A stretch of 63,631 nucleotides of DNA, the filler included. It is 13 parts of 13 records of this genome, joined end to end, with 100 filler letters (N's around TTAATTAATTAA, not from the genome) between each part and the next. Parts side by side here need not be neighbours in the genome. Positions count along the whole stretch, not along the records: positions 20,795 to 24,163 come from SRR7504441_9667; 12 more parts are not named here. One strand, 5' to 3'. Below are positions 17,887 to 54,232 of the stretch, one piece after another; the first letter of the stretch is position 1, and each line of letters begins with the position of its first letter. Under the pieces are notes generated by a model. It made no database searches and was not told the DNA's origin. It was given only the letters and a program-made list of their open reading frames with translations. Made by a program: the position numbers and the translations under genes.

Positions 17887-19296
17887 CTAAAGACTGTCTC
17901 TAATGCTCGAGGTCTCATGCTGCACTTCCTTACCACGGCCAATGTCTGCAGCCAAAACCGGGTACCCATCCGCCGCAAGCTTTGCCTGGATCTGGTCCAT
18001 ATCAAAGCCCCACTTTTCGGCCACGGTGACATTTGCTGTCCCGGTCTCGAAATCGACTTCAGCGCTCACAACACCACTGGTCGCTTCAAAGAGCTTCTGC
18101 ACATGCACCTGGCACGCCTCGCAGCCCATCCCATCGAGCGAGAGGCTATACTTCACAGTCTGCTCGGTCGGTGGGGCCAATGCAGGCCCGCCCGAGAGAA
18201 GCAGCATTTCAGGAGCCATCATCAAGCCAAGTGTCACAGCGGTCTGCATGAGCAGCGTCAGTGAGCGCCGTCGCGGGCTCGCCCAGGCAGCCCCAAGTCC
18301 GGCCAGTGTGACCACTCGAAGCGGGAGTCGGATCGGCCCGAGTATCTTGTTGAATCCAGCGCACCCGAGTTGGATTACTTCGAGCGAGGCTAGAGCGTTG
18401 ATCGCCAACTGGAGCACACAGCAACTCGATGAGACCAAACCAGCCGCCATCGCTAGCAGCCACGAGTTGCCAGCTGAACCGGACCGCTCAGAGTCGGCAG
18501 TTCCGGCATCGCTTGCGGGTTGCACAGAGACCACCGTGGATTTGAAGTTGGCAGCAGTGAGTGCCGCAGCGCACTTTTCAGCGTCCAACTTGGCTTGAGG
18601 CAGCCCGTTGCGGCACTGGAGCACACCGAGCCCCTCATGGATAGATACGCGCATGCTGAGCATCGCACCGCCCTCGAGCGCTACCGCCTGTACCTTGGAA
18701 GCGCACGAGATGCAGCCCAGGCCGTCGATCTGCAGCCGCACCTCGGTCTGGGCAGCACCGCTCGGCCGGCTGGCCTCCCGATTGTAGAAGTAGAGCATCT
18801 CCGGTAGAAACGCCAGGCAGGCGGCTATCGCGCTCCCGCCCGCAGTGAGCCGCCAGTCGGCCAGCGGGTTGGCGGCCAGGACCGACCAGCAGCCGGCCTG
18901 GAGGATGACCGTGCCCGCAAGGAAGGTGGGCCGAGCCGGGCCGAGATAGGTGTTGAAGCCGGCGCAGCCCAGCGAGAGCATGTTCAGTACCACCTGGAGC
19001 AAGCAACATGCGGACGAGAGCAGCCCGAGCAGGCTCCACCAGGCCAGCGAGGACGTGGCCAGCATCAGCTCGATCTGCAGCCGCTGGAACCAGGGCTCCC
19101 ACAGCTGCCGGCCGTAGCTCGACAGCAGCTGGCCCAGCAGCCACAGACCACCCAGCGACCAGGCGAACGCCCTCCCGAACCCGGGTGAGAACACCAGCCA
19201 GGTCTTGCGAAGATCTTCTCCCATGGTGCGCAGCGCAGTGCGGCGTGCAGCCGACGACGCTGAGTCGTGAGGGTCAAGAACGACTCCAACGACCAT
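17887..19296 (-). CDS. Tandem (MerT-like membrane domain + HMA domain)x2 heavy-metal transport protein
   Basis: Intronless ORF with two repeats of S-S-x-C-C-x-L-Q...GCAGFN..LGP.R (MerT-like TM1), each followed by an HMA domain (IDGLGCISC; LDGMGCEAC..GVVSAEVDFETGTANV). Confidence 0.8.
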   Translation of the reverse strand: MVVGVVLDPHDSASSAARRTALRTMGEDLRKTWLVFSPGFGRAFAWSLGGLWLLGQLLSSYGRQLWEPWFQRLQIELMLATSSLAWWSLLGLLSSACCLLQVVLNMLSLGCAGFNTYLGPARPTFLAGTVILQAGCWSVLAANPLADWRLTAGGSAIAACLAFLPEMLYFYNREASRPSGAAQTEVRLQIDGLGCISCASKVQAVALEGGAMLSMRVSIHEGLGVLQCRNGLPQAKLDAEKCAAALTAANFKSTVVSVQPASDAGTADSERSGSAGNSWLLAMAAGLVSSSCCVLQLAINALASLEVIQLGCAGFNKILGPIRLPLRVVTLAGLGAAWASPRRRSLTLLMQTAVTLGLMMAPEMLLLSGGPALAPPTEQTVKYSLSLDGMGCEACQVHVQKLFEATSGVVSAEVDFETGTANVTVAEKWGFDMDQIQAKLAADGYPVLAADIGRGKEVQHETSSIRDSL

Positions 19297-20694: not shown

Positions 20695-21103
20695 NNNNNN
20701 NNNNNNNNNNNNNNNNNNNNNNNNNNNNNNNNNNNNNNTTAATTAATTAANNNNNNNNNNNNNNNNNNNNNNNNNNNNNNNNNNNNNNNNNNNNGTACTA
20801 GAGTACTCGTAGGATCGAGAATAAGTATTGTTACAATCTGTTGCGACCATCAAGAGAAACCGCATTTAAAGAACCGAAGAACTACGGAACTAGGCCTTCG
20901 ATTCCTTGAAATGCACCCGACACAACCCATTAAAATCTGCGAGGTACCTAATTCAACAATTACAGTCTATGCAGTATGCATGCACATGGTTTATATTGCC
21001 TAATGATGTTGTGTCCGCGTGTACGGATTTGTGGAATCATCGCTAAATTTGTGGATCATGCGCTGCATGGTGCTGATTGGTCCAATCTCAATAGGCTAGA
21101 AAA

Positions 21104-21186
21104 GGCCCTGCAGCCCATTCAGATGCGAGACCCCACCCTCCTCTGGGCAATTTGGTCTCGCATCGTCATAAAGGTTGCACGCGGCC
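21104..21186 (-). promoter_or_regulatory. Eukaryotic SECIS element (type II-like) in 3' UTR
   Basis: Minus strand reads GGCCGCGTGCAACCTTT-ATGA-C-GATGCGAGACC-AAA-TTGCCC-AGAGGA-GGGTGG-GGTCTCGCATC-T-GA-ATGGGCTGCAGGGCC. This gives an AUGA/GA kink-turn core, a perfect 11-bp helix II, unpaired AAA, an apical mini-stem, and a lower helix from the GGCC/TGCA arms. Confidence 0.9.
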
Positions 21187-21192
21187 TAGAAT

Positions 21193-21810
21193 CTAATCAG
21201 GCAGCCTCAGCCGTATTGGGCCCTTGAACTCGGCCTCCGGGTGGAGCACGCGCCCGCGCTGCGTCACCTCCACCCGGCCCTCCCGAGCCAGCGCTCGGGC
21301 CGCTCGCCTCACCGGCTCCATCAGCGCCCTCCAGCCTGTCGGGTCCTGCCGTCGGGCCACTTCACTAGGTCAGCAGCTCTTCCCCTTATCGCGCCCAGCC
21401 AGCAGCTCCAGCGTGGCCCGCTGCAGCGCCGCCGTCCCGTGCTCTCCCGGCTGCCCGGGCGACTCCGGCTGCTCGGCAGGATCGTGCAGGCACTTGCGGT
21501 CGATCGCGCCGTTGCTGCCAAACAGGACACCCTCCGCCTCGAGCAGCGCCCGCTTTCGCTTGAGTTTGGGCTGGTTGGCGCCCCACTGTCCCCCGAACCC
21601 GCCCAGCCGCAGGTCAGAGGCCACTACTCGGTGTCAGGGCACCGCCCCGGGTTGGGTCTGATCGTCGTGTGGGTTACGCCGCATCGCCCCGCCCACTGAT
21701 CGGGCGGAGCCGCCGACGGCGTTGGCCAGCCCGCCGTAGCTGCTCACCTTGCCCGGCGGGATCGCCCGCACCGCCGCATACACCCGCTCAGCGTACGCCG
21801 TCGACGCCAT
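21193..21810 (-). CDS. Putative selenoprotein: O6-alkylguanine-DNA alkyltransferase (AGT/ATL-type) domain fused to DUF3253-like domain, two in-frame UGA (Sec) codons, 205 aa
   Basis: One frame reads MASTAYAERVYAAVRAIPPGKVSSYGGLANAVGGSARSVGGAMRRNP..AVP[TGA 21634-6]HRVVASD..KRALLEAEGV..RDKGKSC[TGA 21370-2]PSEVARRQDPTGWRALMEPVRRAARALAREGRVEVTQRG..KGPIRLRLPD-TAG. A SECIS follows immediately. Confidence 0.88.
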
Positions 21811-21894
21811 CCGCGAAGAGCGGCCGTGGCGGAGGGCGCAAAGTCGCGCTCGAATCCCCGAAAAGTGCCACAAGGCAACGCGCAGCAGGGCGCC

Positions 21895-22620
21895 ATGTCG
21901 CCGGCGCTGCTGTATGGGGGCGGCACCTACGCGGTGCTGCTCGGGTCGTGGCTGGCAGTGTGCCTGTTCTTCGAGGGCTGTGAGCAGTTCGGGCTGCTCC
22001 AGGAGTACAGGATCCAGCCCGGGGCCTCCCCGCCCTCCCCGGCGCTCAAGAGGCGTGCGCTCCGTATGGCCGGAATCAACTGGGCCTGGCTGCCGGTGGC
22101 GCTCGGGCTGGCCAGCCCGGTGCTCCAGGCGATCTTCCCCGTGGACAAGCCCTTCCCGCCGCTTGGGCTGTTCGGGCTCCAGGTAGCTGGCTGCTTCATC
22201 CTGGACGACATCTGCTTCTACGCGTACCACAGGGTGCTGCACGAGAACCCAAAGCTGTACGTCAGATTCCACAAGCCGCACCACGTGTTCACCGCTCCGT
22301 TCGCCTGGACCAGCCACGCTGTCCACCCGGTCGAGATGCTGCTCCAGAGCGTCGGGGCCATGCTGGGGCCGGCGCTGCTCCGGATGCCGCTCCCGGCACT
22401 CTGGTGCTGGCTGGCGGTGCGGCAGCTGCAGGGCGTGCTCGATCATACTGGGCTGGAGCTGCCTGTGGACCCGATCGGGTGGATCCCGGGGGTGGGCGGC
22501 ACCAAGTTTCACGACGACCACCACAAGTACTTCACTGCCAATTACGCCTCGTGCTTCAGCTTCATCGACGACCTGTTTGGGACCAGGTACCAGCCGACCG
22601 GTCCCAAGAAGATGGCCTAG
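21895..22620 (+). CDS. Sterol desaturase/fatty acid hydroxylase superfamily (methylsterol monooxygenase-like)
   Basis: His boxes YHRVLH, HKPHH and FHDDHH; HPVE, DHTG, NYASCFSFIDDLFGT; hydrophobic segments. Confidence 0.9.
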   Translation: MSPALLYGGGTYAVLLGSWLAVCLFFEGCEQFGLLQEYRIQPGASPPSPALKRRALRMAGINWAWLPVALGLASPVLQAIFPVDKPFPPLGLFGLQVAGCFILDDICFYAYHRVLHENPKLYVRFHKPHHVFTAPFAWTSHAVHPVEMLLQSVGAMLGPALLRMPLPALWCWLAVRQLQGVLDHTGLELPVDPIGWIPGVGGTKFHDDHHKYFTANYASCFSFIDDLFGTRYQPTGPKKMA

Positions 22621-27956: not shown

Positions 27957-29991
27957 TCAGATGCAATCGTACAAGAACAAGTGGTCGCCCGCGGCCATCG
28001 CAACTAAGCTCTTCTGCGGGTGCCACGTGCAATGCAGCACCTTCTTCGAAAAGTCTATTGTCTGTACGGGCGTCCCGGCCTCGTTCTTCTTGCTGGCCGC
28101 AGTCCCAGTCCTCGAGAACGTGGTCGGCTGCTTGGGCGAGGAGAGCGAGGCCTGGCCCCAGTCAACGGCAAGCGGTTGGGGATTAACGAGACCTCGAGGC
28201 ACGTCTCGGTCCGACCCAGCCTGTCGTATATCTGGAACATGTTGGAGTAGCTCCCAGTTACTATGTGCGAAGCGTCGTGCGAGAACGCGCATTCAAACTT
28301 TTCAAAGTCGAGGCAGTCGTCCTCGTATAAATGCCGCAGCCGCGTCCTCAGCCGACCGTGCACCTGATAGTTATGGTTAATTGATCGCCATTTGATGAGC
28401 TGATAGTCGCCTGGATTGTCTTGAGCGGTTTACTCTCCATGTTAATGTCCCACACCTGCCGATTATTAATTAATAATGAATTAATTAATTAATTAATAAT
28501 CATGCCTTGAGCGTGAGAAAATCTCGTGACAGCAAGTATCGACCGCAATTTGAAAACTTGACATCCGACATGGCCGAGGGCGGGAGCACCTGCAGCCAGT
28601 TACCGGCACTAACTGCACAGTTAGCTCACCTCCGCGAACATCTGGTTGTTGAGGCAGTTCCGTTGCTCAAAGAACTCGCGAGCGCAGTTTGTTTCACACC
28701 TGCCGCCGAAATTCAGCCGAATTCGATTCGAAATTAGGCACATGGACGACATTCGCATATCGTTCATCCTAATTTGGCCGGAGCTGCCCCAACGCTCAGC
28801 CCTGCGGTTGGCCCAACGGACGGACCTGTTGCTGTGGATCATAAGGCTGCAGTGCGACGGGTGAAACTCGGCACATGTAATCACCTGAACACTCGCATCA
28901 GCTGCCACGCACAGCCTTCAAACAAACCTCGACATAGCCGTCGGCCTCGGGCGGCTTGAGGTCCATCACGTTGTAGCACCTGGAACCACTCAACCCACCC
29001 CACCCACAATCCGTTACTCGTCGCTCCGGCCGAGATTCCACATGTTTATTCGAAGCTCGTCGGCCGAAATAAACGTCTCGCCGTCGCTGCAGACCGAGAG
29101 CGAGTTGATGTGGTAGGTGTGCCCGTTGGCGAACTCGCGCCGCTTCTTGGCCGAGACCACCGTCTCGCACGGCTGTACGAGCGGCATCCTGAGCGAGCTC
29201 GAGCTGGTAATGTTCGCAGGAGCCAGCTGCGGAGCAAAGCTCGACACGCGGCTGTTGTTCGGCGGAAAGTTGAGCGAAGTGACCTGACCAAACAGTTACC
29301 CCCCCGCCCCCCCGGCCCGGGCGCCTTCTTCACCCGCTCCTCTCCGAATTTCCACAGCTTAATCACTTTGTCTGCAGCGAATCGTCAGCCAGAGCACTCT
29401 GCACTATAGTCGGACCGTTCGTGCTCAGAAGAAACTGGCCGCCGCTGTGCGGGGTGAGCCACTTGACCTGTGGCCCGGCTGGCCCCCGTTGTGGGGGGTG
29501 TGGGTTGCCTTATTTATGCGCTCCTCGATTCCGAGGCTGAGCAGGTAATCGAATTCGGGTTCGTGCGACTGGAACTGGGTGTACTGACCGACACTCACCG
29601 CCCGGTGTCGACCGGCCCAGGCACACCTTCCGGTATATCGGCGTGTCCCCCCCCGTCCGGCCGCCCTTGGGCGTGCTCGCTCGCCCATCGCGAGACAGCT
29701 ACCCCCCGCCCGGTCAGCCGCCCAGCCGCCCGGCGGGCTCACCCGGCCATTAGCCGCCCCGGCGTTGGCCGTTTTGTACACGCAGACCCGGCCGCTGATG
29801 TCGCCGGTGGCGAGGAACTGGCCCGAGCCGTCGAACTCTAGCGCGGAGATGTTGTTGACTACCCCCCGCCCGGTTAGCCCCCGCCTGCACTCTACTGGGG
29901 ACGGACCGAAACCCTCCTCGGCTTGCGGGCTGTCCGGCTTGTTGTGGAAGACGTGGTGCAAGCCCCAGTAGAGCCGGTGCTGGGCGGTCAT
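27957..29991 (-). CDS. Protein phosphatase 2A regulatory subunit B (B55/PR55, WD40), many introns
   Basis: [92 protein letters not shown]. Confidence 0.93.
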
Positions 29992-38191: not shown

Positions 38192-41100
38192 ATGGCATCG
38201 CGCGTCGACGGTGCGCCCCCCAGCCCCCCACCCCGGCCGCTCACTGGCTGGGCTGCCGGGTCAGAGGCCAACTGGAGTGGGATCAAGGAGCTCTCGCTGA
38301 CCCAGGACGCGGCTCGCGAGCTGCTCGTCGGCTGGAACCTGAACGCCGATGGACCGCTCGGCGTGCTCGTCAAGCGGATCCGGGCCTGCCGCAAGTGCGG
38401 ACCGCCCGGCCGGTCGGCGGGCTGATCCGCTCCGGCAGGCTGCAGGGCTTGGCGCACGACTTCGACCTCGGGCACTTCGACGAGGCGGCGGAGTTCCTCA
38501 ACCGGGCGGTGCGCCGGCCGTCGGGGCTGCGGCTGAGCTGGGTGTGGTTTGGCGTCCACAGGAGTCGCCCAGCGCTGCCGCGATACTGACTGCAGACAAG
38601 TATCGGAACGCGACGCTGTCGGACGAGAACCGGCGGACCGAGCTGGAGAACGCGATGAAACACATCTGCATAGTGTACAACCTGCTGGCCAAGTGCGCCC
38701 GACCGCCGCTGACGGCCGGAGGCTCACCCTGGCTGGGCAGGACGCTGAAGCCCAAGCTCACGCTAGAATCTGACCTGGAGGACGTGATGCAGGCAAGCGC
38801 ACCCCGACCCGGCTGCTTGCTCCCGCCGGACCGTGTCCTGCCGTGTCGAGACGCAGCGCGCGAGCAGTGACTGACTGGCCGGCAGGTTCTCAAGGGCATG
38901 GAGCACATCGTCTTCGACATCCGCCGCCCGAGTGACCGGAAGAAGAAAAAGGAGATGGCGGCCGCCGACGAAGTGTCTGACATGTTCCTCGGGTTCTCCC
39001 GGGACGACATCCTGTCGCTCCCGCAGGACGCGCTGCTCGAGAAGATCTCGGCGCCGCACCCGAAGCGCGAGTCGCTCTACCGTGACGAGTACGCTGACAA
39101 CGAAGGTGCGGCCACGCGTGTGTTGGGGTGAGCCTGGCTGGGCAGAGCACCTGCGGCGGAACATGACGCTGCTGTTGGATAAGATCACCAAGGAGCTTCA
39201 GAAGTCTAAGAAGCTGCTCGAGGATGTGGTGAGCTCTCTCCCGCGCGAGTACAAGAACCGGAACCTCGACGAGATCCACACTTTCTTTGACGACTTCAAG
39301 GAGGCCAACGTGGAGGTGATTCTGAACACCGCGATGGAGCTCAAGCTGGTAGACGAGGACGCGGACGAGGACGAGCTGATCGACGAGATCGACGAGTGAG
39401 TCTGCTGGTCGGGCCGGGCTCTGACGCGGGACAGCCTGCTGGACCTGATTGGCCAGTACTTTGAGAAGACGGAGTCCAAGTACAAGGCGACCAAGATCAA
39501 CGTCAACCTAATGCACGACAACCTGCCCACCGCAGACTTCTACGAGCAAGCATCCAGTCCGCCCGCCAGCTAGCACTCCGGGCTGACCCTCGCGACAGGC
39601 CGTACCTCCAAGGCGATCATTCGGGATCAGGCAGTAGTTGTCAAGCACAGCCGGTCCGGTGTGTGCGGCGTGCCTGCCGGGCGTACTCACGGGCTCGCAG
39701 CTGACTATGTGGACATCGTGGAGGTCGGGGTGCGCTCGGACGGTGTGTTTGTCTGGGAGGAGCTGCCGCCAGATGACGACGACGCCTCGGTGCTCGACGT
39801 CGGTTATGCATTGGTCTGGCACCCGCAGAGCTCCGGGCGGGAGGATGGGCACGTGCTCGAGCGGGTGCTGTCTTCCAAGACCCCGGCATCCCAGCGGATG
39901 ATCTCTCTCACTCTCAAGGATGGCGAGGATGTGTACGTGATCAGCAACCCAGGCCAGGAGAACGTGGAGTCGACCGGGAACAGCCCCGGATTCCGGATGA
40001 TTAAATCCAAGCCGCTCTACATGTCCAAACAGACTGAGGGGCTGCAGAGGCACACAGACACCACTGTGGTGCCGTTCTATCGGTTCGTGGTCCAACTCAA
40101 AGTTCTCGAGACCCTCCAGGCCTCCGAGGCCGGCAGCGCTGTCGACAAGATGGTGCAGTACAAGGAAGCATTCGCTGAGAGCGGCGAAGTGCTGGCCCAG
40201 GCGCTTCAGCTGGACATTGAGTCGAAGGACGCGGCCAGCTCGATCACTGAGAAGCTAGAGTACATGCCACTGCTGCTTTATCATTCATCCAACCGGCTGG
40301 TCCGCGAGATCTTCCCATCATTCCACAGGATTTTTAAGAATAAGTGGAACAAAGTGCTTGAGGTGGAGAACAAATACGACCCGCCGCACATTGCCGAGGT
40401 CAAACAAATGCTGCTGCATATGTTCCTGGCTGGTCCTGACGACAACCACATCGCTGTGGTCCGAGAGGACCAACTGACTGAGATTGAGAAGCTGATCTCG
40501 GTACACACGCATCACCAGTATGTCCGTATTCATGTCGAGCGAGCCAATTTGCAGGTAAGCTGCCCAGTTGGCTGCAACTCATCGGGTTGTGCAGGTGGTT
40601 TTCAGGCAGCTGAAGCGGCTCAACAGCACCAGCGGTGTCGTGCTCGTGTCGCTGCATGTGCTGGGCACTCTCTCGCCACTTGATCTGGGAATGATCATCG
40701 AGGCCACCCGGCTGGGCTCTCTGCGGATCTTCATCGTGTTTTTCCAACAGCTGCTCTACATGCTGCAAGTGATTGGCCGCAAGAAGGATGTGCTGATCGC
40801 ACAGAGCCTGGAAGGCGTCCAATTCACCAACAAGGTCACTGCCTTGTTAGGTCTGTCCGCAGGACTTATCTGTTGGGCAGATCACATACGAGAGGAAGGA
40901 CTTGGTCGGCTGTGCAGTGCTTGAATGCGAGGAAGCCTTCTTCAGGGAGCCTTGGGAGCTGCGGCTGGACACCAGCGTGCCAGGGATCGAACAGATGCTC
41001 TATGAAGGCACCAAATGGCAGCAGTGGGAGTCGCGCTGGCGGCTTGAACAAATCCCAGCCAACCCAGCTGATGCAGAGAAGGCGGTGTATGGCTTGCTGG

Positions 41101-44100
41101 TGGGCGATGTCTCGATTGTGCAGCAGTATTATGAGACTCTCCAGACACAGGAGGCTCTGACCAGAAAGCGGGGCAATTCTACTCCTCCGAGTCTGATCAT
41201 CATGGACTGGCTCAAGCACAATGCAGATGACATTGTTGAAAACTACCTGCCTCTGCCCGAGACGGATGACACACTCACTACGCCACTTGGGAATGCAGGC
41301 AATAGCAAGGATACGGAGCTGCCCAGTTTCTCCGACAAGCCTATTTGTGTGGTTGTGCTGCATGCACATTTGCTTTCGGATGCATTGAGGCGGCACATCG
41401 CATCGCGGGTGATGATCTTGGGGTACAAGGTGGTGTTTGTTGTGCCCATCTTCAACCCTCGAGACAAGACCATCAGCGTGGAGGAGTACAACAAAGCTGC
41501 ACTCACTCTCGATGCGCAGGTCTGGTCTGTGGAGCCCAGCAATGACGACATCACTCGGCTGATTGACGACAGGATGGAGAAGTCGCTCAGAGAGATGGAT
41601 ACCCCTCCTCCGAGTGATGTCATCAAGTACAAGAAGCAGGCGCTGCTTGTGTACCGCTCGCTCAGGCTCTTGGCCGGCCAAAAGTTGACTCATGCCCGGG
41701 CACTGGCGCTCATCACTCGATCAGTGATCTCTCCTGCGCGTGAGAAGCTGCTGATCTCGGAGATTGCCAACGTGATGGAGCATTCACAGATCTCACCGTG
41801 TGTGCTTTCTGATGTGCTGCGGACCATCTTCACGCTTGCACTGCAGTACATCGAGATTGAGAGCAGCTCAGACCTTGCAGCAAGGTTGGAGGCTGACTTG
41901 AAGCAGAAGACACTCCATGATTTCTTGGCAGTGCTCTGCGTTCAAAAGTGCTTCCGCAGTGCCTGGACAATCGAAAAGGAGATTCCTTTCGACACGTTCA
42001 TCTCTAACACACCAATGTGCCAGTTCCTCTCTCAGCGGCATCGAATTGAAGCATGGATTCGCACCATTCTGATTCCTGATGGTGTGGAGCCAGAGCACAT
42101 TGTGAGCTCGCGGTTCTCACCGGGCGACAACACACACACCCTTAGCATCCTGCATTATTGCGTGGCCGGCGACGAGAAACGTATCATGTCCGACCGGCCA
42201 TCTTTTGAGGCAGTGGAGCGGCATTCATCTGTCCGACAGTCGGATCTGTTCCTGCAGCAGTGCATGCAATCAAACGAGCTCAACTGGCCCGAGCTCTCGC
42301 AGGAATGGCGCGTTTTCCCATTCAGCCTAGACTTCCTGTTTGAATTGCTGAGGGTCTACCACCAGCCGCTGAAGCTGCTCTCGTGCATTGGGCTGTCGAA
42401 TCTGCACAATCTGTTCGAGAATGTGGGCGAGGCGTACGAGGACGTGATCGAGCGGATTAAGAGCCAGGTCTCGTTTGCCATGAACAGCCAGATGCTCTCC
42501 ATCTGCTGCGACAGCTCGCCTGGGTTTGCTGCCTTCATCTCGGTGCTCAAGTGGTGCCTCCTGTCCAACGGGCACGCCAGTGTGGACGAGTTGATGTTTG
42601 AATCTCGCGACATTGAGCTGCTGCTCGAGCGACACATCCCAATCAAGATCAACGCAGAGGCTGAGGAGACGGTAGACTTTGTGATCCCAATCATCCTGCA
42701 GCTGGACGGCCCAACCGACATCATCTTCAAGTTCGTTGGGCTGCGCGAGTACTTTGTGTCCATGCCTGAGCAGCACGTCAAGATGCTGCTCGACAAAGAA
42801 CTGCCGCTCGGCGCTGCTGTGCTCGAGTTTGTCTTCAATGTCCAGATCCGTCGCCAGATCGCGCTGAGCAGAATGTGGGATGGGGCGCCTGGCACTATGC
42901 CACACGAAGCCCGGTACCAGCCATTGCCCCTGAGCTACTTGACGCTTGTTGTGCCAGGGGCCGCTTCATCAATCATCCGTTCTTCTCTGCCTTGGTGGTA
43001 TGGTTGGAGAAGGGTGAGCCGATTTCAGAGGACTTCACACCATTTGTGCAGCTGCTGACCACCTCAACATTTGGCTTTCTACTCAGCAAGTGCACAGCTC
43101 ATGCACAGACAGCAGCTGTGATGAAGGCGCTTGACGAGAGGCTGGACGCCCTCGACGACGAAGCCGAGTGCTCACAGTTCTTGTCCAGCGTGCTGAGCGA
43201 TACCCTGAGCCGGAACCCAAATGAAGGGCAACTGGTGTATGCAGTGACGATGCTTATGAAGGGTGATCTGACTCATGGGGTGCTGAGCAGCGACATGGTG
43301 ACTGGTGATCGCTTCATGGACAGCTTGATGGTGTCTCTTGAGACCAAGTCGATGGATCCTCTGATGCAGTGGTATGAGATGCAATCAGCCATCACCACAC
43401 TGCCTGTGCTTACTTCACCAGCACTGAGCGATCTGTACCTTGAGTCCTTTGCTGATGAGCGCATTACAGGCTACCCCAACGTCACTGGACCCAAGCTGAT
43501 CGAGGAGATCCAGCGGCACACCCGGTGGATCTCACGTGAGGGAGTGGACAGCATCCTGTATGCCATCAAGCAGTCGCCAACTGCACATTCAAAGAACCGC
43601 TTCCTGATGTTCCTGTTTTGGATGCTTGCACCCTTCCAGATGCTGCCACATCCACCCACGACTGCAGAACTGCCACTGTTGATCGAGATGGCCCACTCCA
43701 AGGCGATCAGCTTGACCACAACCGTGAAGAACAACCTTGCATCTGTATCCAACTATGCCTTGTACCTCGTGGCACCATATTTCCTCGACTTGAGCTCGCT
43801 CAACAACTTCAACCGCATGCATGGTGAGAAGGAGGTGCGCGAGGAGCCGTTTGTGATCTGCCAGCAGTCGCATGAGTACCTGAGCGCATATGTGATCCGC
43901 GTCCCTCTCCGGCCTTTGCCGCCGCAGGTTTTGGATGTGTTTGACTGCGAAAAGTTCATTCTCGATCCATGGATTGAGATCCACACCAACTTTGACCTCA
44001 AGTTTGACGTCACTTCTGGAGTCGACAAGGTGGGCGTGCCTTGTGTGACCCATTGCACTGACCTTTGCCGGCTTACCAGGGACTGATCGAGCTCAACTTG

Positions 44101-47100
44101 ACTGCTCTGCTCAACCTGGACCGCTGCCACTTTATGGACTTCAATGATGACCCAACCCAAGAACCACACACAGCCATCTTTGTGCGCAGTGTCATCTTGG
44201 CCTGGTTCTATGCATTCGGTGCCACCCGTGACAGGATCGCTCGGTGGGTCGAGAACTCTGGCTGCTCATTTGATGTCAGCTTCATGGACGAGGGCAAAGT
44301 CGACGACGACAGCGTCCATAAGGCCACCCAGCACCCACTCCCGAGCTTCATTGATGTGCGCTTTAACCGGTCGCGATCTGCGTTCCATCTCTTTGGCCTG
44401 TCCCCAGAGGAGGCATCGTACACGCTCCAGTACTATCTGTCGTTCCTGGAGGTGCTGCCTGTGGTCGAACGGAACCAAGTGTTTGCAAAGCATGGCTTCA
44501 AGCCACCTAGCCCTGGCGAGATGCTCCAGGAGATGGATTCATTCGACTCAGACTCAGGTATCAGGAGATACATTGGCACGGCTGCGTACAAGACCCTGCA
44601 CAAGACAGCGTCGTACGTGTTTGGCGACTGTGTGCGGCACATCATCAACCAAGTCCCCGAGTCTGGGGACCCTGAGGCGCCCACCTATGAGTTAACCGCA
44701 GTGGAAGTTCTCTTCCAGCCATTTGTGGACGCTCTGGCAGTCACGTTTGATGAGCGAAGCGACAACGTGGATGGCCCAAAGATGGTACTGGAGATGATTT
44801 CATCGCTCGTCGAAGGGCCCTTGGAGAACCATGGCAAAGACAAGCTGCGCGAGGCGCTGTTCCACCGGGCTCTGATGAGCAGGATTGGCGTGAGCTCGTA
44901 CAGTGCACGGGTGGCCGGTCTGCAGGATATGCTGCTCAATGCCTTCAAGATCAAGGGCCACGCGGTGTGCCACACCTCTCTGATGGAGCTGGAGTTCTGC
45001 TCTCACGGCTTCATGGTGCTAGACTCTCTTAAGGGCGGACTGGAGGGATTCGAGGTCTCCAAGATTGTCTTTGATGACAGTGGCACTGCTCTGACCTATC
45101 GCAACCTGGAGAAGGTGCTGCCGCTCGAGTATGCAGCTGCCCCTAAGGTCTCGGATATCATCATTGATTGGCCCAGCCGCGTCAGTGCTCAGGCACAGGG
45201 CGACTCCATTGATGGTGCTGTGGAATCAGAAGCAGTTGTAGCCCACAACGCGAAAGTCATCGAGTTTTTCAAGGCTGCAAAGACGTCGCAGGACTCAGAA
45301 GTTGGCAAGCAAGGTGTCCAGTCGAGCGACCGCAAGTTCATCCCAGTTTCTGCCACCAAGAAGGTTTCTGTGGTCCATTGCAACGAAATGCTCGAGGTGA
45401 TTCCCAGTCAGAGCTATGGGCTGCTTCGTGTCAAGCCAGGCAACCTAGGTGAGCATCGCGCAGCCAATATAGCCACTTGTGCAGCACTGAGTGTCGCCTG
45501 GCAGGGTTCCTGGTCCGTGGTGTGCAGCACGAGAAGGCCAACTACCCCTTCAACGACGAAGGTGCGCTCTACTTTGTCCAGAGCGAGTCGCCACTGCTCC
45601 GCAAGTGGAAGCTGTCGCCAGCCCAGATCGAGGCGTCCTTCCCTGACAACGGGGTGGCCTGGGAGACCATCTCAAGCTTGCCCCCTCTGTCGACTCTACT
45701 GCTCGACGGCCTGGGCCTCAAGAAAAGCGTCGATGGGACACACTGGGCAGGGATTGTCTCCGCTTACGACATTCCGAGTGTTCCTGACTTCCGTTCCAAG
45801 TCGGTACCGCTGCATGATGAGTTCTACCCATGGAATATCCTGGACTGCGCCCACCTGCTTCCATTCCAGCTCGACTCCCGGGTTCACGACTTCCTCATGT
45901 TCATCTCGCGGGCTGTGCTTGCTTATGGCGATTGTCATCCGCAGCACGACGCCCGTGCAATGGACGAACAGAGCCTGGTTGAATCAGAGCTGATACACAT
46001 CTTCCGTCGGATCGATCAGGGGAAAGGCGGTGGCAACCAGACCAATGCACGCAAGTACTGTGACGAATTCACCAGCGTGGTGATTGGGATCATGGAGACC
46101 ATGGCCTCCAAGCCGACCCGGATCGACACAGTGGTCAAGTCACTGGGCCAATCGCTCATTGCAACATTCCAGAGCGATTCTGAGCCAGCGGTGGAGAAGC
46201 TAACCTACCACCTTTCCAGGACCATGGCATCCACAACCCAGGCACAGCTCAAGGAAGTGCTGACCAAGAGCTTCCGGCTGGATGCATTCCTCAGCAAGGA
46301 GGCTGTCAAGTCATTCAAGACCTTTTTCTACGAGATGGAAGCCACACCTGATTCGACCGCAGGCTTGCATGAGGAGGAAGAGGAGTACGACGACTTTGGA
46401 CCTGACACGCCACTCAATTCTCCTCAGCCGAGTGCAGCTGGAGAGGAGTCAGCCGAGCCAGCCCAACCTACTGGCGATAGTGCACGACAGCGCTACGCTC
46501 TCAAGGACATCAAGCACTCGCGCAAGTCTGCATTTGAGGGTCGTCTTGGCTTCGGCGATCCACTCACCCCAGTTGGAGCAGTGATGGCGGCAGTTGGCAA
46601 GCGCCCACCAGTTCGAATCGCTTACTTGGACTCAGTCAAGCACAAGAATCGGTACAACATGTCCCAAGGCAAGCAACTAGGCTACCTGTTGCACAAGCAT
46701 CTCTTCCTGATCAACGATGCCGAGAAAGATGGCGCAATGAGAGCCTTTGAGAATTGGCTGCTCGACCTCCTGCGCTCGCCTCTGTCTGAGGAGTGGAAGC
46801 AGTGGTTTTTGGCCGTTTGCCGTAACATGGTTGGTCAGAGCCCGCCCATCACAGAGTCCACCACAGTCACTGGTACACAGCTGGTTGCTTCCTGCTTGGC
46901 CCGAGCCTGTCCAGACTCGCGGTTCCAGGATATTTTCACTGGAGCATGCCGGCTGCCTGAGGAAATCGAGCCATTCGTGGAGCGGAAGGATGGATATGGG
47001 ATCTTCTTCTGTGACTCAGGCACTCTCAATCGGATGGAAGAGGTCGGGATTAAGGTGGAAGACATCGACTTCAGGCAGGAATTCCTCTCAGGGACTGTGT

Positions 47101-47508
47101 CGAGCGATGAGTACTACTTGCGCATCTTGCAAAAGTTCACTGGGTTCACATGCTGTGTTTACATCCAAGGTATCCCATCTGAGGCTGGCCTTATCGGCTG
47201 ATGTGCTGCTGTGACAGGGCTGCCTGTCGTGAGTGACTCCTTGCTGAAGTGGTGCGCAGAGTACACTGAGAGGTGCCCGTGGCGATTCATTTTCTTTGAG
47301 AACACCGACTCGACCTGGAACTTCTCAGAGAATCGTGACCGGTGCAACTACAAGTTCTACACCCGGCCGAGCCTGGAAAGCTGGAAGTATCAGACAGACT
47401 TCTTGCACGAGGTGTACTCAGTCCAGTACAACTCGCGGGACGACATGACCCTGCCAGCTGAGGATCCTGTCCTGACGCTGATGAATCAGGTGCGCCAGTT
47501 GCTACATC
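38192..47508 (+). CDS. Very large (roughly 2,900 aa or more) hypothetical protein, 3'-truncated
   Basis: Chain of same-strand ORFs (39661, 40568, 40902, 42875, 44065, 45477, 47211) linked by about 40-nt GT/GC-AG introns; consistent codon usage; no domain recognised. Confidence 0.7.
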
Positions 47509-47608: not shown

Positions 47609-50600
47609 GTCTTCCATCAGCGACAACGGCGTTTCTTCATCATCGTCGCCAAACGTCGTGTCGCTGTTGCGTCCCGCCTCATTATCAGTCTCATTGTCGG
47701 TGTCCATCTCGATGGTGGCACCTCCGAGCTCATGTTGCGATAGGGACTTTGACATGGCCAGCGATTTCCTCGGACTGGGCATCGGTCGCGCAAGGGAGGA
47801 GCCCTTCCGCGGGCTCCAAAGTGCGGGTGAATGTCTAGGTATCGACGAGTCGTCGAGTTTGCAGCTATCGAGCATCAACTGCTCTAGCACCTTGTGGTCG
47901 GTGGTGTTGACCATCTTCTTTCGCATCGACTGCGGCCCTACCCTGAAGTCTAGAGACCATTTGGCTAGCCTGATCCAATCTGCGTCGGGCCAGATGCCAT
48001 GATTATGCACTAGCGTGAGCCTCAGATCGGCCCAAGATGACCGCACCTCGATTGGCCTCGCAGCATAGAGCAGCCATTCGTCCTGGGCATGGCCAGCCTC
48101 AAGCGCATTTGCCACCTCATACGACTGCAGCTGTTCTCGCTTGGCTTCATTGTGCAATTTCTCCGCTCTGGTCAAGCGCTCTGCTATGCTCTGCAATTCA
48201 GAGCAACGCAAATACTCTAATGATCCCTTTGATCGAGATTGCCGGGTGGAAGATTGCGATTCTTGACGAGAAAGTGTCAAAACGCCCACACTGTCGAAGA
48301 ATGCGTCCACAAGCTCGATGTTCTCATAATGCCATCGAGCGAAGTCAGACATGGAGCCTTTCAGCATCAGATCAAACCCGTCGGTGTACAGGCTTTGGCT
48401 ATGGTCTGGCACTCCGTGTCGCGGGTCTTCGGTTGTAGCTACCAGAAATCCCTTCATAAAATCTACATACGTGACAAGCAAGTGCCGCCACATCTTGTGG
48501 GACAAATCGCGAATCTCAGTACTGTCTGCCATCAGAAACGAGTACAGCCAGTACGATATTGAAATGACCGCGTTTTGATCAACGGCATCTTTCACGTAGA
48601 CAAACTTTGCAGCTTCACACAGACCTTTGAGCACTTCGGTCGTGAAAACTTGGCCCTGTTCACGAGCCTGAGACAGGAGAAACACCATATATGAGTGGAA
48701 AGCATTCCGCAGTCCCTTAAGCACCGAATCGTCTAGCGGGGATGCCTGCAAAGTCGTAGACCCCGATTCCCGACCAGTTGCAAGGATTTTCTGCAGCGAT
48801 TCTACGAGTAGATGTAATAGAGGTATTATCTGCGATGGGTTAAGGCCGGTCTTTGCCCGGTTGACCAGCAGAAGGCAAACAGATCCCATATTGCCAACCA
48901 ACAATTGACTGCGAGAGAGATCAATTGCACGCAGCCCTCGCAGCCCTCGGGTCATTAAACCGCAAAGGGCCGATCGGGCAACCTCTTGCTTCTCGAAGAG
49001 CCCGAGGCATCCCTCCACTACATCCTGGGCATTTGGCCTCCCCAACATCGCGTCTTCAATCGCTAGATACAGCCAACTGAGCAGTGTAGGCATACTCCTA
49101 CTTATCAGTGACAGTTCTGCTACAGGTTTACTCTCTTCTTGCAGTTGCGTGTCAATCCCTTGGAAGCTCGAATCAGAAGCATGATACATGATCATAGCAA
49201 GGAAGTCGAGCATTAACTTCAGGTCTGCCTGAATGAGTTGTCGGAAGCCTGGACAGGCCTCATGCAAGTGTGTTATGAAAGCCAGCACTGTGAGGGACAC
49301 AGAAGCCTCCAATCTCTCCTCGTCGCGTGCAAGTGGACTCCAGAGCCCAGACAATTCAGTATGGAGCATTGCCAGTATGACGGGCAGCACCTGAGGTAAT
49401 TCTATGGTTTGTAACCCAGAAATATCGCAATTGTCCTCACAGAGCTGGATGAGGGAGAGAGATCCGGTAGCACTACACGATTCAGCCGGGAGTTGCTTCC
49501 CGAGCAGGCATGCGAATAAGATGCGATAGCACATTGGGTCATTGGCACATAGAGGATCAGTCAATGTGCCTCGCAGAGAACTCCATCCATTGTTCAGTGC
49601 AAAATGCGCGAGGAACACGGGCTGCGTTTGAATTAGCTGTGATAGGCCATGCAATACTGCATAGACAGACTTGGGGCACATCTCGAGACTGCACAATGAG
49701 AGAAGAGGCCTGAATGGGCAGGCATTCCAGACATGAGATATGCTCTCCTGTGTTGAAAAAAGAGAATAGAGCTGGACCACCACTTGGATAAGAGCACAAC
49801 GTAGTGAGGTACGGTTGCTAGGTCCTGACCTCTCACTCGTTTCATCAGGAGAAAGCGATGCACTGAAATTCTTAGTGCCAAACATGGCGCACGTGTGTCG
49901 ATATAGGGCAGTTGCATGGTCCTGCAAGTCCTCCGGCCGCATCAGTAGAGAACGCAATAGAGTGCACGCAGAATTGATCATTTCGGGAGGAAGCGCAGAG
50001 CCCTCACAGAACCGAATCAGCCACTCAAAAACATTCACCTGCTTGAATCGAACTAGGTTCACCTTATGGTGGATGTTCTCAGCAAGCATGCTCAGCCAAC
50101 CAAGCAGCAGATGCTGCAGCTCCGTTGAAAGCATTGCCCAAAGCTCCATGTCGAGCACTACGTGCTCCATCACCCCGATGTTAGCTACTTGATCCATTCC
50201 TACCATCTCAAACAAGCGATGCACCACTACGTCACTCACCAGTGCACAGCGCTGCTTGAGCAACTCGCCTAGTATCTGAAAACCATCGCATGCTTCCATT
50301 GCCGCTAGATTCTGGATGCCGGTTACGAAGTTTTGAGTGATGAATGACAGTGCTGTGTGGAGCTTCTCGGAGGAATTTGCTGACTCTACGAGCAACAATG
50401 CACAGGATGGGCCGCCAAGTCGTGCCATGACGTCGCTCAGGATCTGAATGGGACACATGGTAACACAGCCCTGCAAAGTACCAAACTCTGGAGTGCGATC
50501 GAAGTCTGCAGGCCGCTCCAAAATGCAGTTTCGAACAGTGCTGGGGTCAGTGCCTCGCGTGTGGATTGGTGGCCAAGTATCACTGTCGAGATAGCACTTC

Positions 50601-53600
50601 GAGTTGCCCATATCTGGATGATAGGCCATCAGGGGCACCAGAGCAACTCCAATACTCACTGATTCCGCCCACTTTCCCTGCTCCAAGAGCTGGAGGTATC
50701 GCTCCAAGTTTGACTCCATGTTGTCACCAATCCGGTCCATCATCGTAGAATGAGTCAAGATCACCTCGTGGTGCTGCAAATGTGGCGCGTTCCACAGGGG
50801 GCATCCGCGGACACTCGGGCCAAGGTGAAACAATGATTGCATCCCTGCGACACTGAGAGGGGTTTCATAGAAGAGAAAAGGGCCGAGCTGCCATTCAGCG
50901 AGACTATCATCACTGGCATGGTGCCCAGGGCAGCCCAAGAAAGGCCAGGAACGCCGCTTTTTGTCATCGGGCAGACCACAGTGCTCTGTCTGCTTCAGTT
51001 GACCGTTGATGATTAATGAAAGCGCTACCCGCTTCTCTTTGGACTTGCGCTGCACAGACACTCCAACATGGTACCATGTGTTGACTTCGAACTGGAATGC
51101 TGTGAAGTACGCCCGCTCAGGGATGCCCCGCTGATCCCCAAGGGTCGCCACTAGCGTGTTACTCTCGCAATCAATCACAAATGAGACCAGATCGGGCTCT
51201 CCTGAGGCCAACTCTGTGTATGGACAAGCATGGAATAGGTGTATCAGTCCAGTGTTGCCGGACTTGTTATTGCCTCTAAATGTGACAACTCGGAGCCACC
51301 AAATTGCAGTGAAATTGTGTGGAGGCCATGTTCGCTTAGCTGTCTCAGCCAATGCCACACAACAATGCGGCTCCATCTGATGAGCCGATCCAGTTACAAA
51401 CTCCCATACATCACAGGAGAATTGCCTTTTGGACGTAACGGGCAACATTGTGAATAGCTCATCCGGACAATGTGGTTTCATTAAGATTTTCCATAGTCGC
51501 CTCGCGTCTACAGCGTCGCAGTGGCTCCCAAACAACCTCGTCAACAGTTGCACGCAGGGCTTATGACAGACCAGAGACTCGTTGAGCAAGATAGGCTCGC
51601 TCCAATCAAGGAAGTCAAGGATGAAGCGAGGCAGCTCCGAGAGAGCTTTTACATTCCGGGCTCTGACGAGCAACTCGGCTACTGCGTCACAGATTGTTGC
51701 TGTGAGCTGAGGGTCTTTGCAATGGGTTAGCGCTGCCTCAAGCAATGGCGGCACCAGCTGGCTCTGAGCGATGTCTGTTACGCAGACCTGCATTCAGAAT
51801 AGGTCAGTGCTAGTTATGAGGTCTTTGCATGGCACCTCGGCAGCCTCAATGCTTGTGCCAAGGCAAGCCGCGAGGTCGCACAGCTGCTCAGCCTCATCTT
51901 CGTCAACAGCCAGACTAGCACTCTTTTCCGACTTGGAGCCCTGCCACACTGGACTGGTGTCTGTAATGAGCTGCAGCAACCCATTGAGTACAGCATTGGC
52001 ATGCTGGCTGGTGTAGACTCCAGATTTGCTCAAATTATCACACAGGTCGACCACTGCCCCAGATTCTCGGAAGTAATTTGCATTCTCAGGGTCGTTCTTG
52101 AGGGCGCCTCCAAGCGTGCATAGCAGCAGCAGCAGCAGTCGGGCGCAATCCACGTTGTCCTCGTTCTCAGTGAATACCTGTTTGAGCATACCAAGCGGCG
52201 ATATTGCGCACTGGAAGCCCCCCAGCTCCCTGAACGCCGCCCTGATCTCAGTCCGGTGATGCAGCACTGCCCAGAGCGTGCTGAGGATGTCAGCCTGCTG
52301 CCCAAGCATCTGCCCCCGAGCGTTAGCCGGCTGTCGCAGCCCGGGCACCTGAGCTCGGTCCTGCAGGTGGCCGGACGCCACCAGCTCTCGGATGAGGGCG
52401 CCCATGTAGTCTTCGGTGTGCGCCGAGTCCTTGAGCAGCAAGTTCCTCAGCAGCTCCAGGCAGGCGGCCCGGCACTCGGCCACAGATATCCGGGGCAGGA
52501 TGTGCGACGGGGCGTCGATGCTGTGCAGCAGCGTGGCGTTCTCGCTCGAGGATCGCACCAGCAGAGAGAGCAGCATCATCACGTCGTTCGCAGTCCGCGT
52601 GTCCTCGAGCGGCAAGTTGCTCAGCACGTGCACCAACGAGTCGAGCAGCGACACCTCCCGAAACACATGCACAAAGGTAGGCCGGCAGCCGATCCACTTG
52701 GCGATCGCGTTGATGATCAGCGAGCGCGAGATAGCAGAGAGCTGGCCGCCGCCCTGGAGCGCCATCGCGAGCGTGCCGAGCTCCTGGTGCGGAATGTGAT
52801 CGAGCACGAGCAGCTGGTACTCGAGCAGGTTGATGATCATCGAGCGCACCTCCGGGCAGAACGAGTCGAGCTCGACCAGCATTGCGGCGAGCGGGTGCAC
52901 GATCTCCACCAAAGTAGCGTTCTGCGGGTCGTTCATGTAGACACCGTACATGTGCTCCAGGATACGGGCCTGCAGCCACGAGCTCCGGCAGGCCTTGAGC
53001 GCCTCGGGCAGCACGCGGAACGCCTCGACGCACTGGACGCAGTTGGGGTGCGCGCCCTTGTTCCCAAACTGCTGCTGCTGGTCCGGCGGGAGCTGCCCAA
53101 CGTACACCAGCTGGCTGACCACTTGGAGCACCAGCTCGAGCTGCTGCTCGTGCCCCGGGCTGCCGGCCAGCCAGAGCAGCAGCTGTGTGAGCTTGTCGAA
53201 CCCTCCGGCCTGGATGAAAGCCTGGAGCATCTGACGAGTCTGAGTGCAGCTGGCGGCCAGGTACCGCGCATACAGCTGCAGCACAGTCAGCCGGAACTCC
53301 AAGCTGAACGGCGGCAGCTCGGCCGGGCTGATCACGCCCAGCTGGTCGGAGACGCACTTTGCTTCGCACAGGTACGACACTTGCTTGCCTGTGAGAGGGT
53401 GCTCGCACACTGCATCGAGCGCAGCCAGTGCGTGCTCTGCCACCCTCGCGCTCCCGGGCCCCGAGGCCGCCGACACCATCCCGAACAGGCTGCCGATCGG
53501 CCGCGGGTTGGAGAGCAGCTCCTTGATCCCGGGCTCAGTCCCACACAGCCGGCACAGCAGCGCGGCTGCCCTGCCCTCAGCCTCGACTGCCTGGTTGTCC

Positions 53601-54232
53601 CACTCCTCGTCGTCGTTAAACACCATATCCGCCAGCGCCGCCAGCGCCTCCACCAGCGTGGACGGCAGCCCGGCCGAGCACACCGCCCGGCCGGCCGCCG
53701 GTGAGCCCGCCAGCGCCTGGAGCACCTGGCCGGGGTCACAGGCTGCACAGGCTTGGGCTCACCACGAGCTGCTGGTCCGCCAGCATCCGGACGAGCAGCT
53801 CGGCCACCGCCCGGCCGCCCTCTAGCTCGGCCTGCTTGAGCTGGTTGATCAGCAGCTTGGCCAGCTCGCCCAGCAGCAGCTTGATCTCGATCACCTGCCC
53901 GGCGCTCGCCCGGCAACCGGAGCCCAACCCGCCTCTCCGAGCTCGTCGATCCGCTCGGGCCGGTCGGCCACCACTCGGCAGAGCACCGGCACCATCTGGG
54001 CCCAGGCGGCCCGCTGCTTATCCTGCTCGCGCTTGCCGAGCTTGGTGTACTCGCCCCACAGCGAGTGAAGCTTGAGCTCCGCCCGGCTGAGCACCAGCTT
54101 GGGCCGATCCGGCCGGGCCCCGGCCGCAGGCTCCGGGGATCGGTCCGTCTCGGCTGACGGGCTGGCGCTGCTGTTGCCGTCGAACGCCTCGTCGAAGAAC
54201 TTGCCCACCGAGTTTTTGAGCCGTTTGAACAT
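47609..54232 (-). CDS. BEACH-family protein (WDFY3/ALFY/LvsA-like), N-terminal portion, 3'-truncated
   Basis: Long helical-repeat N-terminus (AFRELGGFQCAIS), LamG/ConA-like domain (WPPHNFTAIWWLRV..NTWYHVGV..IINGQL), LGGPSCALLLVE, and pre-PH WSLDFRVGPQSMRKKM motif. The BEACH domain itself lies beyond the contig end. Confidence 0.8.

Follow-up and report, generated by a model that had tools for sequence, protein, structure and literature searches.

A probable form-2 SECIS element downstream of an alkyltransferase-DUF3253 fusion gene with two in-frame UGA codons

In known SECIS elements the AUGA/GA quartet is the core that is bound by SBP2, and for eukaryotic selenoproteins with two Sec residues (MSP, the SelW-like protein and UxxU SELENOW) a single SECIS is present in each mRNA. 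MSP and the SelW-like protein of O. lucimarinus are described as two-Sec selenoproteins in one study (PMC2375036) and UxxU SELENOW in another (PMC7539508). In the eukaryotic form-2 SECIS (RF00031), the quartet is accompanied by helix I and by a helix II roughly one turn long, the 5' strand has unpaired A's and an extra mini-stem is present. Long mini-stems are described for the SECIS of Ostreococcus and Chlamydomonas and an unpaired AAA for Dictyostelium, and according to the same source the base preceding UGA is G in all but one SECIS of each Ostreococcus species (PMC2375036). Selenocysteine has also been found in alkyltransferases. MDP, a Sec-containing family of methylated-DNA-protein-cysteine methyltransferases, is reported among the algal selenoproteins (PMC7539508) and has been matched in Picochlorum as well (PMC11092101), while for the marine prokaryotes of GOS one Sec form is given against 2,879 Cys forms (PMC2398784). 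The engineered human AGT C145U carries Sec at the alkyltransferase active site and protects E. coli cells from MNNG; it is an artificial protein made by UAG suppression in E. coli and, as described there, uses no SECIS (PMC4150793). Since this engineered Sec-AGT is protective, Sec chemistry is feasible at the active site of an alkyltransferase.

The locus described here was found in a window (the whole stretch of DNA analysed, 63,631 nt) that consists of 13 contigs joined by N44-TTAATTAATTAA-N44 linkers, with 12 junctions within 6266-59314 (e.g., 20695-20794). These linkers are artificial and therefore sequences on either side of one are not linked. The 12-mer TTAATTAATTAA also occurs at 28481-28492, there as part of a natural AT-rich stretch with no N flanks. 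On the contig at 20795-24163, the hairpin at 21187-21103 of the minus strand is most probably a functional eukaryotic form-2 SECIS, located in the 3' UTR of a selenoprotein gene of 205 codons in which both UGAs are read as Sec (Table 1); we give this reading a probability of about 0.88. It draws on the architecture and rarity of the RNA, on its position and strand, on the correspondence of Sec and Cys at both UGAs and on the coding signal across both of them, all directly observed. The hairpin shares every feature of the form-2 class listed above, including the long mini-stem and the unpaired AAA, and differs from most Ostreococcus elements in that A precedes the UGA. The gene is MDP-like, as judged from the description of that family, in being an alkyltransferase homologue of a eukaryotic microbe with a Sec codon at the alkyl-acceptor Cys and a SECIS on its 3' side. 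As in the two-Sec selenoproteins, more than one UGA would be decoded per mRNA; in the SelW type, however, both Sec residues belong to one short UxxU motif, whereas here they would be 88 codons apart in two unrelated domains. SECIS elements of this class and Sec-containing alkyltransferases (MDP) of algae are already known, and the new part is possibly the second Sec, the one in DUF3253.

Table 1. Coordinates of the SECIS hairpin, of the candidate poly(A) signal and of the gene with two in-frame TGAs
Feature	Position	Strand	Basis
Whole SECIS element, form 2 / type II	21103..21187	-	MFE fold, Rfam SECIS_1 match, descriptor
Helix I, 5' arm	21172..21187	-	MFE fold
AUGA, 5' side of quartet	21166..21169	-	sequence; aligned to AUGA of SECIS_1 model
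Helix II, 5' arm, GATGCGAGACC	21154..21164	-	sequence, fold, arm search
Unpaired AAA bulge	21151..21153	-	sequence, SECIS_1 alignment, fold
Mini-stem, UUGCCC (21150-21145) / GGGUGG (21138-21133), loop inside	21133..21150	-	folds
Apical loop AGAGGA, 6 nt	21144-21139	-	sequence, fold
Helix II, 3' arm, GGTCTCGCATC	21122..21132	-	sequence, fold, arm search
UGA, 3' side of quartet (GA 21120-21119, U 21121)	21119..21121	-	sequence; model alignment
Helix I, 3' arm	21103..21116	-	MFE fold
TGTAA, candidate poly(A) signal, 139 nt past SECIS	20960..20964	-	inferred
Intron-less coding sequence, 205 codons + TAG (21195-21193), two in-frame TGAs	21193..21810	-	
Alkyltransferase domain PF01035, residues 7-95	21526..21792	-	Pfam E 2.1e-24
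First TGA, codon 59, catalytic Cys position of PCHRV (P-U-HRV here)	21634..21636	-	alignments
DUF3253 domain PF11625, winged helix, residues 128-204	21199..21429	-	Pfam E 6.8e-25
Second TGA, codon 147, invariant Cys of DUF3253 'CPS' motif	21370..21372	-	alignments

The AUGA and closing GA of the quartet, the AAA on top of the stem and the mini-stem TTGCCC/GGGTGG are all present on the minus strand, exactly where the original prediction had placed them. Helix II, in which GATGCGAGACC pairs with GGTCTCGCATC, is indeed the perfect 11-bp stem that had been proposed, with Watson-Crick pairs at 11/11 positions. The mini-stem comprises 6 bp (3 G-C and 3 G-U) and appears in the MFE structure as well as in the centroid. 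The lower helix arms that had been noticed in the sequence are recovered as helix I, whose 13 pairs between 21187-21172 and 21116-21103 are added by the unconstrained MFE fold. RNA folding had been named as a check of the element, and the unconstrained fold of 21192-21100 returns the full SECIS architecture at -43.2 kcal/mol (z -4.11, equalled by 0/200 shuffles); the upper part of the SECIS alone gives -26.9 kcal/mol (z -5.21, again equalled by 0/200 shuffles). The AUGA starts at the 24th nucleotide past the TAG and lies 201 nt downstream of the second TGA, in agreement with the predicted distances of about 24 and about 200 nt, and 465 nt downstream of the first TGA. Both UGAs are thus located beyond the minimum UGA-to-SECIS distance, which is quoted as 51-111 nt (PMC8659212).

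In the SECISearch pattern the quartet is separated from the unpaired AA by 10-13 nt and the AA from the GA by 15-39 nt, with energy thresholds of -12.6 and -3.7 kcal/mol (PMC2375036). Here the two spacings are 12 nt and 31 nt, both inside these ranges, and the energies of -43.2 and -26.9 kcal/mol are far past the thresholds, although they are ViennaRNA energies and may differ somewhat from those of the program used in that paper. The spacing and the energies support the assignment of the architecture to the eukaryotic form-2 (type II) SECIS, as had been predicted. A covariance-model scan with Rfam, also suggested beforehand, gave a mixed result. The SECIS_1 model (RF00031) matches 21177-21107 over its full length (model positions 1-64 of 64), and the alignment puts AUGA, AAA and UGA on consensus positions. 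It is the sole Rfam family matched within 20850-21450 (E 0.023) and the single SECIS_1 match in the whole window, where its E of 2.5 over 4227 families corresponds to approximately 6e-4 for SECIS_1 alone, the family having been named beforehand. The score of 24.4 bits, however, does not reach the SECIS_1 gathering score of 35, and for this reason an Rfam scan of the window at gathering cut-offs returned 0 matches. This value is the curated cut-off of one model and not a structural feature of the SECIS class; accordingly, we avoid the term Rfam-grade match for the element, yet class it as a SECIS because its structural features are present. The term "near-textbook" used in the original prediction holds in that all elements of a SECIS are there, but is slightly generous given an Rfam score under the cut-off and a mini-stem with as many G-U as G-C pairs.

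The rarity of such a structure was estimated with a SECISearch-style descriptor (ATGA, one base, a stem of 9-13 bp, AA, loop, the stem complement, one base, GA). The hairpin is its single match on the two strands of the window. When applied to 300 first-order Markov windows, any site with a perfect stem appeared in 4/300 and a site with at most one mismatch in 42/300, and from these simulations approximately 3e-5 sites are expected to start in a given 300 nt of a given strand. Allowing 2 mismatches adds one site in the window at 55364-55313 (minus strand), which was treated as a chance match; its stem of 9 bp includes 2 mismatches, and a suitable gene end is missing upstream.

With both TGAs read through, the product of the upstream gene is a single-domain O6-alkylguanine-DNA alkyltransferase fused to a DUF3253 winged helix, and each of the two Pfam matches spans one TGA. 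The scores are 85.6 bits for PF01035 (cut-off 27) and 87.5 bits for PF11625 (cut-off 22.1), while the N-terminal domain PF02870 is absent from the gene according to Pfam. The domains are joined by a Pro/Gly/Glu-rich linker of approximately 30 residues (21468-21443 region, residues 115-123). Alkyltransferases in the PDB match the protein down to E 1.9e-09, with active transferases at the top and Atl1 at 6.5e-05. The first TGA coincides with the Cys of PCHRV in ungapped alignments to 4wxc and 1mgt, in a column that is Cys in 11/11 aligned homologues; among the stored homologues covering this site, 229/232 have Cys and 3/232 have Trp. At the second site Cys is found in 75/77 of the stored homologues that cover it and in the same column of PDB 2ns0, and in the other two, both alkyltransferases, the alignment extends into an unrelated tail. 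The codon before the second TGA is TGC, giving a Cys-Sec pair if the TGA is Sec. Codon usage continues across both TGAs, as GC3 is 0.86, 0.85 and 0.79 in the three segments that they delimit, against a GC of 0.46 over the 398 nt past the stop. The original prediction regarded the hairpin as evidence for UGA recoding, and this stands up well: the hairpin is on the coding strand past a gene whose TGAs match the invariant Cys of two Pfam domains.

Alkyltransferase-like (ATL) proteins have a Trp (TGG) replacing the active-site Cys, which gives the motif PWHRV. This assignment was rejected for the present gene, where the codon at the site is TGA and not TGG and the best PDB matches are active transferases; the PCHRV nucleophile is retained only if UGA stands for Sec or Cys. 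Approximately six extra residues are observed in the alkyltransferase domain between the conserved NP and VP-U-HRV in comparison with the aligned homologues. The closest full-length relatives of both the alkyltransferase and DUF3253 are mostly bacterial or metagenomic. No UGA-truncated orthologue was seen among the 14 aligned of 39 shorter-protein matches, all 14 being complete Cys forms, and the protein collection searched contained no exact matches for three window proteins. A combined alignment of both domain families was left out, for it was misaligned and had approximately 20% identity to the query.

If the hairpin acts as a SECIS, the AUGA/UGA quartet at the base of helix II would form a kink-turn in the mRNA that is recognized by SBP2, and SBP2 would in turn recruit eEFSec, together with Sec-tRNA(Sec), to ribosomes that pause at a UGA. 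The UGAs of codons 59 and 147 would then be decoded as Sec instead of stop, with one SECIS for both. In the resulting protein Sec would replace the alkyl-accepting Cys and also the invariant Cys of DUF3253, in the latter case with a Cys directly before it. We infer the action of SBP2 and eEFSec, the inclusion of the hairpin in the mRNA and the Sec machinery of the organism from established eukaryotic Sec decoding. The remaining 398 nt of the contig past the stop contain no second SECIS-like match, and thus the proposal that one SECIS serves two UGAs fits the locus. ARAGORN found no tRNA, and hence no tRNA(Sec), in the window. No other selenoprotein or SECIS candidate is present in the 63.6 kb either. 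Within 20800-21200, the minus strand contains neither AATAAA nor ATTAAA and has TGTAA at 20964-20960 and 20835-20831. UGUAA is a poly(A) signal in green algae, and for an organism of that group the copy closer to the SECIS would be a plausible signal of this kind.

Several other readings of the locus have to be considered, all of them poorly supported. Cys codons are one substitution from TGA, and the gene might accordingly be a pseudogene with two nonsense mutations followed by a hairpin that arose by chance, in line with a window that holds no Sec machinery and with an Rfam score under the cut-off. This is highly improbable, given that the 205 codons offer 56 single-substitution nonsense paths and that two independent ones would strike both invariant Cys codons with a probability of approximately 6.5e-4, a figure that excludes the intact downstream domain and the SECIS. 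The domain past the first TGA still matches at E 7e-25 with GC3 unchanged, and a full SECIS at the right place and on the right strand would be a further coincidence (approximately 3e-5). Reassignment of UGA to a sense codon would equally do away with the stops, either as Cys, as in the euplotid nuclear code, or as Trp, which would turn PCHRV into the PWHRV of ATL; both sites are Cys positions, and the Trp in 3/232 homologues at the first site has been noted above. Against this, 10 Pfam-supported ORFs (4288 codons) of the window use 120 TGT/TGC and 95 TGG codons in frames that stay free of TGA over as many as 1057 codons; the way the ORFs were defined itself excludes TGA, and the evidence lies in their length. 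TGA ends 5/10 of them, some perhaps at exon ends, and in the present gene the two remaining Cys are encoded by TGC and both Trp by TGG. Trp is found at the second site in 0/77 homologues, and a reassigned code would leave the SECIS unexplained, so that we consider this reading hardly probable. The numbers of frames obtained by reading through TGA (234), TAG (80) and TAA (32) reflect only GC richness and were not taken as evidence.

It is also conceivable that the TGAs are spliced out or are assembly errors, in which case the gene would encode an ordinary Cys protein and the hairpin would serve mRNA stability or 3'-end formation. The assembly is fragmentary, with 13 contigs in the window, and another of its genes has a probable in-frame intron of 48 nt containing a TGA. 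Both TGAs of the present gene, however, are within ungapped conserved motifs (VP-U-HRVV and SC-U-PSEVAR), from which splicing would remove conserved residues, and two independent errors that both yield TGA at Cys codons are unlikely. The hairpin does not resemble an intrinsic terminator (0 such sites found), and the helix II arms have no further copies in the window at up to one mismatch. We regard splicing or error as very unlikely. The contig might finally be bacterial, with a SECIS of bacterial type directly 3' of each UGA; most of the nearest full-length relatives come from bacteria or metagenomes, the genes are closely spaced and the present one lacks introns. The 67 nt from or one base past each UGA, however, fold no better than shuffles, with z +0.73 (150/200 shuffles as good) and z -0.71 (49/200), the best matches of the neighbouring gene include eukaryotic transcriptome catalogues, and the contig also has a leucine-rich-repeat gene that is broken up over several frames, as introns would give. 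A bacterial origin has a close to negligible probability, and a selenoprotein gene with a eukaryotic SECIS remains the preferred reading.

To our knowledge DUF3253 is a domain with a solved structure (2ns0) and no known function, and the term "DUF3253" is absent from the searchable literature. PDB 2ns0 matches the domain of the present protein at E 3.7e-15. An AlphaFold2 model of the domain (pLDDT 92.6) superimposes on 2ns0 with a Foldseek TM of 0.88, and 2ns0 alone is retrieved at E <= 0.001, the weaker matches being generic winged-helix DNA binders. In the model the Sec/Cys site is predicted to directly precede helix 2. A metagenomic protein of 252 aa, P0002, contains the same two domains in one chain, with 48% identity over the alkyltransferase part; it differs in the reversed domain order (DUF3253, then alkyltransferase) and in having Cys at both sites. 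Fusions of the two domains are rare, P0002 being the sole other one among the matches listed (120 in one list, and 150 of 11,703 in another), and it provides independent support for a functional link of DUF3253 with the alkyltransferase.

An alkyltransferase gene was detected by HMM within 4 kb of DUF3253 at 0/80 bacterial loci; the same HMM matches 232/306 stored homologues as a control, and the loci were read as stop-to-stop frames, by which DUF3253 itself was recovered in 80/80 (greedy ORF calling: 23/80). A Pfam scan of the nearest neighbours, covering 150/154 frames at 78 loci, identified a photolyase-family gene beside DUF3253 at 3/78 loci, namely L001 (4235-5785), L014 (4235-5860) and L027 (4413-5648), and in L001 this gene starts 7 nt past the DUF3253 match on the same strand. 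Other neighbours are Fpg in L027, a LigD 3'-phosphoesterase in L065 and an AlkB-like 2OG oxygenase domain in L078. Such DNA-repair neighbours are scattered (5/78 loci) and the remaining neighbours are unrelated; hence there is no conserved DUF3253 operon, and the bacterial gene context points to no firm function. We tentatively suggest, as a possibility that is rather doubtful at present, that DUF3253 is a so far unrecognised Cys- or Sec-dependent reactive domain, in which the invariant Cys, capping the N-terminus of helix 2, acts as a catalytic, redox or alkyl-accepting nucleophile. In that case the gene would encode a natural protein that carries Sec in each of two unrelated domains under one SECIS, and the fusion, found here and in reversed order in P0002, would point to a second acceptor or sensor of DNA damage beside O6-alkylguanine repair.

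Recognition of the SECIS changes the annotation of the locus, as the gene would otherwise be predicted as a fragment of 58 residues; the organism, too, should be regarded as a user of Sec. Alkyltransferases are single-turnover proteins, and thus a Sec form spends one Sec for each lesion repaired. A natural Sec-alkyltransferase would be a useful counterpart to the engineered Sec-AGT, and the second Sec singles out the invariant DUF3253 Cys as a residue of chemical importance, with a Sec/Cys pair that makes the function directly testable. The SECIS itself is ordinary for its class; the value of the locus lies in annotating a fusion selenoprotein with two Sec correctly and in the lead on DUF3253.

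The selenoprotein gene is arranged head to head with a divergent fatty-acid hydroxylase gene (21895-22620, plus strand), and 84 nt (21811-21894) separate both ATGs, a spacing which suggests a very compact genome and a shared promoter region. The best matches of the fatty-acid hydroxylase are eukaryotic metagenome or transcriptome proteins with at most 72% identity. The leucine-rich-repeat gene split over several frames is situated downstream on the same contig, which looks eukaryotic. On the neighbouring contig, an intron-less ORF of 469 aa (17887-19296, minus strand) carries a heavy-metal-associated domain at its C-terminus and two hydrophobic segments, internally repeated and each with Cys-Cys, and may encode a metal transport or binding protein. 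Elsewhere in the window, the plus strand carries four long ORFs (687, 321, 619 and 434 aa) over 40995-47201 with no Pfam match at E <= 1e-5; a sub-threshold match to manA RNA at 43537-43714 (24.5 bits vs 55.2) inside these ORFs is probably noise. A frame of 2071 codons with Armadillo-like repeats extends over 47609-53821 (minus strand) and has TGAs only at 51796-51794 and at codon 21. The former TGA is inside a stretch of 48 nt that starts with GT, ends with AG and holds CTGAC, and this stretch is probably a very short in-frame intron and its TGA not a Sec codon.
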